DNA from: Armatimonadota bacterium
GTDB taxonomy: Bacteria; Armatimonadota; SYMT01
DNA: 64,000 nucleotides
Assembly: GCA_041690135.1 (NCBI GenBank)
Contig: JAWLHY010000008.1
Location: forward strand, 192,001 to 256,000
Direction of reading: 5' to 3'
Part shown: positions 40,519 to 43,162 of the stretch, piece after piece
Numbering within the stretch: position 1 is the first letter of the stretch
Layout of the letters: every line of letters starts with the position of its first letter
The notes under the pieces: model-generated
Seen by the model: the letters and a program-made list of their open reading frames with translations, nothing else
Databases searched by the model: none
Told to the model about the DNA's origin: nothing
Translations under genes and position numbers: made by a program

Positions 40519-40607
40519 GGAAACGGCTCACAGAGGCGGGCGGGCGGCTCGCCGGGGTGCTTTCGGTGAGTATTGACGGGAATGGCCGGAGGTGAAACGT
40601 GGGCGTG

Positions 40608-40616
40608 TGCTATGCT
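40608..40616 (+). promoter_or_regulatory. Extended -10 promoter TGcTATGCT, 6 nt upstream of ATG (leaderless candidate)
   Basis: TG-C-TATGCT-GTAGGG-ATG. Confidence 0.55.
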
Positions 40617-40622
40617 GTAGGG

Positions 40623-41651
40623 ATGGACGGAACAGAGATTTCACAGTTGACGGTAGAGGCCTCGGAGGTGGGGGAGCGCCTTGACCGGGTGATCCAGGCG
40701 GCGCTGCCGCAGCTGTCGCGGACGGCGGTCCAGCGGATGATCGCGGACGGGCTCGTGCGGGTGCAAGGAAAGCCGGGGAAACCGGGGCAAAAGCTGCGGC
40801 GCGGGGAAGTGGTGGAGTGGGAGGCCCCGCCCGCGGAAGCCGCGCCGGATACCCACGCGCCGGAGGCGATCCCGCTGGACGTAGTGTTTGAGGACGACGA
40901 CCTCCTGGTGATCGACAAGCCGAAGGGGCTGGTAGTCCACCCGGCGCCGGGGCATGCTACCGGCACGTTGGTGAACGCGGTGCTGGCCCACGCGGGGGAG
41001 GACCTTACCGGGATCGGCGGCGTGGAGCGGCCTGGGATCGTCCACCGGCTGGACCAGGACACCTCCGGCCTGATGGTGGTCGCCAAGTCCGAGCGGGCAT
41101 ACCAGTCACTGCAGGCGCAGATCCAGGAGCGAACCGCCGAGCGGCGCTACCTGGCGCTGGTCCGGGGCTCGGCGCGGTTCGAAAGGGCGAGCGTGGATGC
41201 GCCAATCGGGCGGCATCCCACGGACCGGAAACGGATGGCAGTACTTCCCCGGGGCAGTGCCCACACGCACCGGGAGGCGCGGACCGACCTGCGTGTGCTG
41301 GATCGCCTGCCCGGGTTCACCTTTCTGGAAGCGCGGCTGCAGACGGGCCGCACCCACCAGATCCGCGTCCACTGTGCCTACATCCGCCTCCCCGTGGTGG
41401 GGGACCAGACTTACGGTCCCAAGCAGCCAGAGCGGGATCCCCACCTCTCCGCGGAGGTGAAGGCGGCGATCCGCAATCTCCAGGGCCAGGCGCTCCACGC
41501 CTACCGGCTCTCCTTCAACCACCCGGTCACCGGCGAGCGGATGCAGTTCCTCCGCCCGCCCTCCGCCGACTTCCAGGCCCTTCTCGAGGTGCTGGGCGTC
41601 CGCTGGGAACCCAAAGAAGACGACCCATGGCCGGAGGACCTTTCGGATTAG
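40623..41651 (+). CDS. rluD: RluA/RluD-family pseudouridine synthase with S4 domain
   Basis: GERLDR S4 start, KPKGLVVHP, RPGIVHRLDQDTSG, TGRTHQIRVH, QALHA. Confidence 0.93.
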   Translation: MDGTEISQLTVEASEVGERLDRVIQAALPQLSRTAVQRMIADGLVRVQGKPGKPGQKLRRGEVVEWEAPPAEAAPDTHAPEAIPLDVVFEDDDLLVIDKPKGLVVHPAPGHATGTLVNAVLAHAGEDLTGIGGVERPGIVHRLDQDTSGLMVVAKSERAYQSLQAQIQERTAERRYLALVRGSARFERASVDAPIGRHPTDRKRMAVLPRGSAHTHREARTDLRVLDRLPGFTFLEARLQTGRTHQIRVHCAYIRLPVVGDQTYGPKQPERDPHLSAEVKAAIRNLQGQALHAYRLSFNHPVTGERMQFLRPPSADFQALLEVLGVRWEPKEDDPWPEDLSD

Positions 41652-41700
41652 GATTAGGATCATGATGAAGATAAGGATAAGGAAGAGGCAAGGATAAGGA
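41646..41700. repeat. Hexamer micro-array (GGATTA/GGATAA-like) overlapping the rluD stop codon
   Basis: ggattaggattaggatcatgatgaagataaggataaggaagaggcaaggataagga. Confidence 0.8.
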
Positions 41701-41838
41701 GTGGTGGATAGGACGGCCTGGGATACCCACGAAGCGGACGACGGGGTGCCTGGCCTGGAGGCACCAGGGAGGTCCCCCTGGTCACCGCATCTGCCCAAGT
41801 TCACGCACACGCTCCTCGATCCGTCCCTCTGCTTCCCT

Positions 41839-41878
41839 CTCCGTGGTCTTCTCCGTGTCTCCGTGACTCGGTGGTGGA
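41839..41878. repeat. CTCCGTG-periodic ~40-bp dispersed repeat, copy 1
   Basis: ctccgtggtcttctccgtgtctccgtgactcggtggtgga. Confidence 0.8.
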
Positions 41879-41889
41879 AGTCCCCGCAC

Positions 41890-41920
41890 AAAAAAGCCCC
41901 GTCCCGGTTGGGGACGGGGC
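41890..41920 (-). terminator. Rho-independent terminator (minus strand)
   Basis: 10-bp stem GCCCCGTCCC/GGGACGGGGC followed by T6 on the minus strand. Confidence 0.88.
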
Positions 41921-42061
41921 AGTTAACGCCACTCTCCAGTATCCAAACGCCCAAGAGGAGACCGAGAACATTTCCCGTCCTCATGGATAAGGACCCACGC
42001 GGAATCCAACCGGTTCCCGAGATTTCCCCGTCCGATTTCGTGCCGTGACCAACTGGCACCA
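41890..42061 (-). ncRNA. Candidate stand-alone structured small RNA (long irregular hairpin, possibly 6S-like)
   Basis: TATCAT -10 box at 42068-42073; nested helices CAGUUG-GUCAC/GUGGC-UAACUG, UCGGACG/CGUUUGG, CGGGAAC/GUUCUCG, GUCCUUA/UGAGGAC; ends at terminator; no convincing ORF. Confidence 0.5.
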
Positions 42062-42080
42062 GGTCATATGATACTTCCCG

Positions 42081-42150
42081 CCCTCCACCATCCACCTTCC
42101 GCTCTCCCCTCTCCGTGACCTACTCCGTGTCTTCGTGACGCAGTGGTGAA
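42081..42150. repeat. CCCTCCA-like heptamer run plus CTCCGTG-periodic repeat, copy 2
   Basis: ccctccaccatccaccttccgctctcccct then ctccgtgacctactccgtgtcttcgtgacgcagtggtgaa, ending 7 bp beyond the SanA-like stop. Confidence 0.75.
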
Positions 42151-42157
42151 AACAAAA

Positions 42158-42904
42158 TCAGCGGGTAGGCATCTCGTTCACGAAGAGGGGCTCGCGGGGG
42201 CCGAGGTACTTGGACTGGCGGCGGAGGAAGGCCACGTCGATCACAGCGGCGGCGCGGGCGAGGGCTTCCCGGATCCGGGTGCTGCGGAGGGCATCCGGCG
42301 CCATGCCGACCCGGGAGGAGTAACCCACGGCATCGATCCCCAGGTTGCGGGCCGTGTAGATAGCGCGCGGTAGATGGAACGCCTGGGTGACGAGGACGGC
42401 GCGGTCGACCGCGAAGATCTCCCTGGCCCGGTAGCAGCTATCGTAGGTCCGAAAGCCGGCGTAGTCCCGCACCACATCCTCGGCCGGGACCCCAAGGCTT
42501 ACGGCGTGGCGCTTCATGGCGGTCACCTCGTCGTAGTCGCTGCGGCCGTTGTCGCCGGTCATCAGCAGTTTCCGGACCTTGCCCGCCTGGTAAAGGGACA
42601 CTCCGGCTTCTACCCGGTGCCGCAGGACCGGCGAGAGCCCGCCGCCGGGGTAGACCCGCGCGCCGAACACGATCGCCACGGGGCGCTCCGGGACCGCCTC
42701 CAACTCCGGGTAGCAGAGGGCATCCGTGGTGGCAAGCATCCAGCGGTCCGCCGCCGCGATGAACGCCACCCCGGCCACAGCCAGCGCGCACAGGCACAGG
42801 GCCGCAGTACGAAGCTTGCGCCCGCGGGGGCGGGGAGAGTGCCTCACGGTATCGGGTGGGGCCAGGGCGGGGGAAGCGGCGGATGGTGCGTGCAGGTCCA
42901 GCAT
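42158..42904 (-). CDS. SanA/YdcF (DUF218) family protein
   Basis: AIVFGA, LMTGDNG..DYDE, DYAGFRTYDS, VTQAFHLPRA, REALAR. Confidence 0.92.
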   Translation of the reverse strand: MLDLHAPSAASPALAPPDTVRHSPRPRGRKLRTAALCLCALAVAGVAFIAAADRWMLATTDALCYPELEAVPERPVAIVFGARVYPGGGLSPVLRHRVEAGVSLYQAGKVRKLLMTGDNGRSDYDEVTAMKRHAVSLGVPAEDVVRDYAGFRTYDSCYRAREIFAVDRAVLVTQAFHLPRAIYTARNLGIDAVGYSSRVGMAPDALRSTRIREALARAAAVIDVAFLRRQSKYLGPREPLFVNEMPTR

Positions 42905-43087: not shown

Positions 43088-43157
43088 CCTCCACCCCTCA
43101 CTCGCCACTCTTCCCCGCTCCGTGGTTTTCTCCGTGTCTCAGTGCCTCGGTGGTGAA
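43088..43157. repeat. CCCTCCA-like heptamer run plus CTCCGTG-periodic repeat, copy 3
   Basis: ccctccacccctcactcgccactc then ctccgtggttttctccgtgtctcagtgcctcggtggtgaa, 5 bp beyond the aminopeptidase stop. Confidence 0.8.
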
Positions 43158-43162
43158 CACCC

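Follow-up and report, generated by a model that had tools for sequence, protein, structure and literature searches.

Promoters recognised by sigma factors of extracytoplasmic function (ECF) have the general form GGAAC ... GTC, and the promoter consensus of the sigma-E-dependent small RNAs (sRNAs), MicA and RybB among them, is of the related GGAAC ... TC type; these sRNAs carry their seed at the 5' terminus. EcfG-type promoters read GGAAC-N16-CGTT, and GsrN and other EcfG-dependent sRNAs of Alphaproteobacteria, as well as the CcsR or "cuckoo" CCUCCUCCC sRNAs, are driven by stress sigma factors, with some of them carrying C/U-rich motifs directed against the Shine-Dalgarno sequence. MicA, RybB, and MicL are sigma-E-dependent (PMC4102768) and, together with MicV and VrrA, are proposed as the repressing arm of an ECF stress response (PMC4102768, PMC6694218). 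The Burkholderia sRNAs ncS03, ncS05, ncS27, and ncS62 of Rfam family RF02278 work through a CU-rich stretch that can pair with ribosome-binding sites and that precedes a hairpin and a terminator, and Burkholderia carries three to five copies (PMC5688073). For the phylum Armatimonadota, a description of regulatory RNAs was not found in the literature searched, where "Armatimonadota" and "small RNA" occur together in no title or abstract. Here, we describe a candidate, previously uncatalogued sRNA gene in a 64,000-nucleotide (nt) stretch of an Armatimonadota genome (GCA_041690135.1, contig JAWLHY010000008.1, positions 192,001 to 256,000), which we call the window. On balance, the element is best read as a stand-alone gene for a regulatory RNA of ~95 nt, transcribed from an ECF-type promoter on the minus strand from 41984 to 41890. 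The whole case is computational, and the boundaries, promoter, and fold differ from those of an earlier note, which had proposed a ~170-nt RNA starting from a TATCAT box at 42073, folding into one long interrupted rod, and perhaps resembling 6S RNA. Coordinates of the element are window positions on the minus strand unless stated otherwise; G000 is the genome of the window, G001-G007 and the other G numbers are its relatives, and L031, L028, and L032 are loci on metagenome contigs.

Homologues and architecture of the element

The element was compared across six loci, namely the window, L031, L028, L032, G005, and G004. The three metagenome loci were reached through protein relatives of the DUF218 protein encoded upstream of the element in the window, and their contigs were fetched together with the surroundings of the gene. 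The window, L031, and L028 copies were combined into a covariance model, which, when run on 100 relatives, matched G005 (C28:46809-46961, 38.4 bits, E 3e-6) and G004 (C581:2692-2814, E 0.054), which are two other genera of the family of G000. This model gave matches at E <= 0.1 in 18 genomes besides G000; those in G005, G038, G097, G049, and G023 were examined by alignment and that in G004 by sequence reading. Only G005 and G004 were accepted, as the matches in G038, G097, G049, and G023 were without CUCCUC and GAGAGUGG or consisted of a terminator only. A second covariance model, run on the eight genomes that make up the class here (G000 included), found one copy each in G000, G004, and G005. 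A further match of this model, at L180 (35.2 bits), comprised the 3' end of an open reading frame (ORF) and a terminator and was discarded as a false positive. A BLAST-type DNA search of 40 relatives returned short chance matches only.

Every copy displays the same order of parts after the start: a 5' hairpin (stem-loop 1, SL1), the motif CUCCUC, a second hairpin (SL2) with GAGAGUGG as its 3' strand, a short linker, and a Rho-independent terminator. In the window, the predicted transcript of ~95 nt (41890..41984, with a putative 5' end) contains SL1 (GAGGACG / UGUUCUC) at 41964..41982, and a hairpin is found at the matching place in all homologues. The CU-rich motif UCUCCUCUU follows at 41953..41961 and is a candidate anti-Shine-Dalgarno seed; its core CUCCUC is invariant in the five full-length homologues (window, L031, L028, G005, and G004), which were used for the structure tests, and is present at the cut end of L032, a copy truncated by the end of its contig. 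SL2 spans 41962-41928, and the letters AGAGTGG of its 3' strand GAGAGUGG (41929..41936) are invariant in the same five homologues. The terminator occupies 41890..41920 and comprises a stem of ten pairs (41920-41896), nine of them G-C, followed directly by TTTTTT (U-run 41895-41890), in agreement with the strong terminator that the earlier note had placed here.

The letters of SL1 differ between lineages, with GAGGAC/GUUCUC in the window, GAAGCCU/AGGCUUC in L031, GGAAGCAC/GUGCUCC in G005, GGAAG..CC/GGCUUCC in G004, and GAGACCCAC/GCGGGUUUC in L032, where the hairpin can be read too, although this copy was left out of model building. Three of the seven SL1 pairs change on both sides, with 83% of cells pairing in an unfitted MAFFT alignment, and the terminator stem shows compensatory changes among homologues in four of ten pairs, giving seven pairs of the three-hairpin model (SL1, SL2, and terminator) that change on both sides. 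Under this model, 93.5% of cells pair, compared with 43.6-57.8% when the partners are slid by 1-3 columns. The minimum free energy (MFE) structure of the window transcript consists of SL1, SL2, and the terminator (-40.8 kcal/mol, z = -2.71), and the five predicted transcripts, 95-110 nt long, have z-scores of -2.71, -5.41, -1.75, -4.01, and -2.80. RNAalifold consensus structures computed on three and five sequences mixed the promoter with the RNA and were set aside. SL2 is an unproven helix, the pairing of GAGAGUGG with the CU-rich tract being predicted only.

The clearest sign of selection on the element comes from a comparison of L031 and L028, which stem from two related organisms. The first 74 nt of their predicted transcripts are identical, as are 105 of 112 aligned columns overall, compared with identities of 77.0% and 78.7% in the flanking DUF218 and DUF1360 coding DNA and of 4% and 43% in the intergenic flanks. 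The identity begins at the -35 box and not at the DUF218 stop codon, 15 of the 19 columns of the promoter spacer are identical, and all differences within the transcript lie just 5' of the terminator stem or in the terminator loop. The 74 nt of identity, taken together with the compensatory changes in SL1 and the terminator, argue for selection on an RNA.

The genomic contexts differ between the homologues. In four of the six loci, the element is preceded by a co-directional DUF218 gene, with the element directly downstream of it in L031, ~300 nt downstream in L028, where the intervening nucleotides are unrelated, and after an intervening ORF of 117 amino acids in L032. No DUF218 orthologue was found in G005 and G004 at E <= 1e-10, and the only family-level orthologue, in G002 (58% identity), has its next gene within ~90 nt and no element. 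In G005, the AlkZ-like gene upstream points away from the element, which therefore requires a separate promoter in this genome and cannot be a 3' untranslated region (UTR). The next gene is convergent in four of the five complete loci (PseudoU_synth_2 in the window and G004, DUF1360 in L031 and L028), so that the element is not a leader in these four; for the window, where the convergent gene lies at 40599-41651 on the plus strand, the earlier note had concluded the same. Across the loci the element thus probably stands alone, with a divergent upstream and a convergent downstream gene coming together in no single locus. A small-protein reading was rejected, as the frames differ and the homologue transcripts, translated by eye, have no peptide in common.

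Two further observations concern individual sequences. The L032 copy has an extra, strong 9-bp hairpin (GCAGCCACC / GGUGGCUGC) at L032:2426-2465, between SL1 and the CU-rich tract, which is absent in the others. In addition, a 205-nt contig from a run labelled single organism matches the final 80 nt of the predicted sRNA (41889-41968) except at one position, and turns into unrelated A+T-rich sequence exactly at 41889, at the end of the terminator U-run. This junction may reflect chimera formation at a genuine RNA 3' end or a different genomic context.

Putative promoter and candidate sigma factor

Directly upstream of the predicted RNA lie a putative -35 box of ECF-sigma type, GGGAACC, at 42012..42018 and a putative -10 box, GGGTCC, at 41991..41996. 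GGAAC is found in all six homologues and GTC is invariant in all six, with the two boxes being separated by N18 in five of them and by N17 in G004. The spacer is unconserved and ranges from G+C-rich to A-rich; the window and L032, for example, agree in every letter of the -35 block CGGGAACCGG and of the -10 block TGGGTCCTTAT and differ in the spacer. As the spacing is fixed between two short boxes and the spacer is free, the boxes mark a promoter and not an RNA helix, and the motif, in which a -35 GGAAC and a TC-containing -10 stand at a fixed distance right before the predicted RNA, matches the ECF type. A purine stands 8 nt past GTC in five of the six homologues, and transcription likely starts at A41984 in the window. 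A near-identical soil-metagenome contig (one contig, depth 2) has G for T at 41984 on the plus strand, equal to A to C in the RNA; this position is the predicted first base of the transcript and lay in the apical loop of the rod drawn in the earlier note.

G000 contains 70 genes with a Sigma70_r2 domain, and only one of them has GGAAC-N17/18-GTC within 450 nt upstream, with two such sites. This gene (C1:1463823-1463242) encodes an ECF sigma factor (TIGR02937, 128.8 bits against a cut-off of 42.9) and forms a sigma/anti-sigma pair (C1:1463823-1462655) with the ORF that follows, in which an HxxxCxxC motif is seen by eye and which gives weak anti-sigma matches below cut-off (NF052375, 50.2 against 100). 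Orthologues of the sigma factor, at 72-78% identity, are present in all five family genomes searched. The distal GGAAC-N18-GTC site, 190-235 nt upstream of the sigma gene, is kept in G000, G002, G004, and G005; the G001 orthologue has a GTT variant of it, and no site was found within 300 nt upstream of the G006 orthologue. One such site before one of 70 sigma genes is unsurprising, and the argument rests on the presence of two sites and on their conservation among orthologues. We infer the promoter assignment, the 5' end, and the responsible sigma factor from these sequence patterns, and the link between the promoter and this particular sigma factor is made with moderate confidence. Short tandem repeats immediately precede the distal ECF-type promoter of the sigma gene, with CCCGAACA-type units in G000 (C1:1464100-1464060) and CCCTACA-type units at the same position in G005 (L214), although the letters differ.

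The spacing is enriched across the G000 genome: GGAACC-N15-GGGTC occurs 24 times, compared with 6-17 times at twelve other spacings, and GGGAAC-N18-GTC[CT] occurs 68 times, compared with 39-58 at other spacings. Other high-scoring sites precede ORFs encoding an Amidase_3/AMIN protein, a Ser/Thr kinase, a HEAT-repeat protein, and several proteins with signal-peptide-like N-termini, which hints at an envelope-related regulon. A pattern search for GGAAC-N17/18-GTC-N30-60-CTCCTC in G001, G002, G003, G006, and G007 gave candidates of which three were read, namely L239 (G006), L240 (G001), and L244 (G006), and these three proved to be leaders of protein genes and not sRNAs. Their sites precede genes with signal-peptide-like or Tat-like N-termini, a context that fits an envelope-directed ECF regulon common to the family.

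In the proposed mechanism, an ECF-type sigma factor would transcribe the RNA from its own promoter (GGGAACC-17 nt-GTCC, 42018-41991). The most likely candidate would be that of the conserved sigma/zinc-finger anti-sigma pair in G000 (C1:1463823-1462655), with the RNA being made when the anti-sigma factor releases its partner, perhaps under envelope-type stress. Transcription would end at the intrinsic terminator (41920-41890). CUCCUC is complementary to ribosome-binding sites of the GGAGG type, such as GGAGGA before the DUF218 start, and the CU-rich tract would pair with such sites in target mRNAs and lower their translation, so that the RNA would serve as the non-coding arm of an ECF response, as MicA, RybB, and MicL do for sigma-E. 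The targets and the pairing mechanism are guessed by analogy; when duplex formation between the sRNA and the start region of DUF218 was scored crudely, 6% of random windows did equally well.

Alternative explanations

Several findings weigh against a stand-alone, sigma-driven regulatory RNA that pairs through its CU-rich tract. The three-hairpin model was derived from the same five sequences on which it was tested, and these are the only independent ones. Within SL2, five of the six pairs never vary and covariation is absent, and the MFE structure of G004 lacks the model fold. The CU-rich tract has a mean unpaired probability of 0.28-0.61 and is predicted to be largely paired, whereas classic anti-Shine-Dalgarno sRNAs expose their seed. 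The second covariance model found no copy in the other five genomes of the class, three of which carry the sigma orthologue, and at E <= 1 it did not detect the cut L032 copy, which was recognised by sequence reading and by 31 of 48 letters identical to the window across the promoter. On a weight matrix derived from the six sRNA promoters, the sites before the sigma gene reach 14.6 and 15.4, levels that 222 and 112 genome positions, respectively, equal or exceed. Transcripts reading through from DUF218 may add to the RNA pool in the window, and the RNA and its 5' end are themselves predictions.

Among the other explanations, it seems rather unlikely that the promoter and transcript are real and that the RNA acts without anti-Shine-Dalgarno pairing, by binding or titrating a protein through the CUCCUC/GAGAGUGG helix or by pairing elsewhere. 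The invariance of both SL2 strands, beyond the need of pairing alone, and the mostly paired state predicted for the CU tract would suit such a role, yet the neighbouring genes suggest no partner protein, and a CsrA gene was not found in G000. Moreover, a CU-rich tract is the working part of the RF02278 sRNAs (PMC5688073), and RF02278 ranks first among the weak Rfam matches in the window and scores highest among those in G005. Unlikely, too, is a promoterless 3' UTR and terminator module of the DUF218 gene, kept because it stabilises or terminates the mRNA. While the element follows a same-strand DUF218 gene in four of six loci, and the stretch from the DUF218 stop codon to the element gave no scored terminator in the window, G005 and G004 carry the element without a DUF218 orthologue at the threshold used, the upstream gene is divergent in G005, ~300 unrelated nt (L028) or an ORF (L032) separate the element from DUF218, and the identity of L031 and L028 sets in at the -35 box. 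It is more improbable still that the conserved blocks act as DNA, for instance as a regulator site by a terminator, or that the promoter fires without yielding a stable functional RNA. The promoter is indeed predicted from its motif and the RNA is deduced, but L031 and L028 are identical over 74 consecutive nt past the -10 box, more than in the neighbouring genes, and SL1 and the terminator keep their pairing through compensatory changes.

The version of the earlier note, a 6S-like rod of ~170 nt, is hardly credible. The window sequence allows each of the 36 proposed pairs, all of them standard and seven of them G-U, but neither the stability nor the conservation of the rod was borne out. The rod has an energy of -27.9 kcal/mol and an ensemble probability of 8e-15, compared with an MFE of -45.0 kcal/mol for these 136 nt, and all 300 dinucleotide shuffles had MFEs below the energy of the rod; the native MFE has z = -0.37, and the 177-nt stretch on the minus strand has z = -0.88. 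As shuffled sequences fold lower than the rod, the pairing seen by eye is at the chance level of 65% G+C sequence, and the long rod-shaped fold is not real. The sequence 5' of the -35 box is unrelated and cannot be aligned between homologues, and in an unfitted MAFFT alignment of five homologues, window included, 61.1% of the cells in the three inner helices are paired. With the GGAAC and GTC boxes conserved and the spacer free, the 5' half of the rod is promoter DNA or unconserved upstream sequence. The letters TATCAT do occur at 42073-42068 on the minus strand, but no sigma-70-like promoter was scored on that strand in 41500-42400, leaving them without a -35 partner and a promoter role for them unsupported, and the transcript predicted after the ECF-type promoter is ~95 nt long and not ~170 nt. 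RF00013 (6S; gathering score 46.4 bits) gave no match at E <= 10 in 41600-42300, and the genome has its proper 6S RNA elsewhere (C7:10334-10535, 69.2 bits), so that the element is not 6S. What remains of the earlier proposal is an undescribed RNA gene that is non-coding, conserved, and probably stand-alone, with homologues that keep three hairpins in place of the rod.

Neighbouring features and known RNA families

Upstream of the element on the same strand, the DUF218 (SanA-like) gene occupies 42158..42904 (Pfam PF02698, 89.9 bits). The named relatives of its product include proteins of Capsulimonadaceae at 50-53% identity, and the best named relative (61%) comes from a metagenome-assembled genome labelled Actinomycetota. 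The convergent gene at 40599..41651 on the plus strand encodes an RluD-like pseudouridine synthase (Pfam PF00849, PseudoU_synth_2, and PF01479, S4). Past its stop codon at 41651, direct repeats TAAGGATAAGGA / CAAGGATAAGGA are found in the intergenic stretch at 41672-41700 (plus strand), and a third near-copy lies on the other strand at 41982-41993, within the -10/start region of the sRNA; this resemblance is probably due to chance.

A repeat search identified copies of a dispersed CACGGAG repeat on the minus strand on either side of the RNA gene and outside it, at 41835-41879 and at 42107-42152, the latter beginning 5 nt past the DUF218 stop codon. The two copies, 83% alike over 41832-41879 and 42104-42151, do flank the element, as the earlier note had it, but they are two of 67 copies of a ~45-nt repeat in G000 and have no bracketing role. 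The repeat is built of CACGGAG(A) units, with the consensus TTCTCACCACGGAGACACGGAGACACGGAG-N5-CACGGAGAGGG and four GGA motifs, and a third copy in the window (43114-43158, minus strand) lies after the M29 peptidase gene, the next gene upstream. A total of 42 of the 67 copies begin at most 80 nt past the stop codon of an ORF on their own strand, counting ORFs of 100 amino acids or more, and 28 of these begin 1-15 nt past it; the same count made in the opposite orientation is 18 of 67. With up to three mismatches, the repeat has 33 matches in G004, 40 in G006, 6 in G007, and 1 in G002; it was not found in G001, G003, and G005, and reversed-pattern controls gave none. It is therefore a gene-end-associated element that lies outside the RNA gene and does not bracket it. 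It could function in RNA, at 3' ends, or as an array bound by protein; CsrA was considered as a reader of its GGA-rich letters and rejected, as G000 yielded no CsrA gene.

Searching Rfam with the whole 64-kb window at gathering thresholds gave no matches. A sensitive search of 41600-42300 returned only weak matches, several of them aligned over the terminator, and the same search of four homologue loci gave none at threshold, so that no Rfam family reaches its threshold at the locus. The top-ranked weak match in the window is RF02278 at 22.8 bits, which is also the highest-scoring match in G005 (22.9 bits), both well short of the gathering score of 50; its alignment to the window places the UGUCUCCU of the model over the conserved GUCUCCU.

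If the prediction holds, it would provide a first handle on post-transcriptional control in Armatimonadota and an sRNA linked to a defined ECF sigma/anti-sigma pair. More tentatively, it could be speculated that this is the first sRNA family described for the phylum, that the design of an ECF sigma factor with a repressing sRNA arm arose here independently of Proteobacteria, and that the anti-Shine-Dalgarno tract is masked by the RNA itself in the invariant GAGAGUGG helix, to be opened or recognised by a protein in order to act; we regard this combination as possible but doubtful.

The likeness of the element to 6S RNA is confined to the letters GGGAACC...GUUC, of which GGGAACC is best read as promoter DNA, namely the -35 box of an ECF-type promoter. 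With GsrN- and CcsR-type sRNAs, it would share the drive by a stress sigma factor, whereas the promoter motif and the phylum differ and no Rfam match connects them. Like the element, the sigma-E sRNAs have short genes that begin with a GGAAC ... TC promoter and end in a Rho-independent terminator; however, they belong to enterobacteria and Vibrio, a different phylum, show no sequence or Rfam similarity to it, and have a 5'-terminal seed, while the conserved tract of the element is central and, by prediction, partly paired. The Betaproteobacteria "toxic" or double-hairpin sRNAs of RF02278 (PMC5688073) have a CU-rich stretch, a hairpin, and a terminator in common with the element. Yet, the element has an additional 5' hairpin, the invariant partner strand GAGAGUGG, and an ECF-type promoter, and it occurs as one copy per genome instead of the three to five of Burkholderia. 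An alternative-sigma promoter, a CU-rich sRNA, and a terminator together make up a well-known kind of system, and the gain lies in a new family and a corrected annotation and not in a new principle: most likely, the element adds a new sRNA family to a familiar class of bacterial regulators, in a phylum that has received little study.

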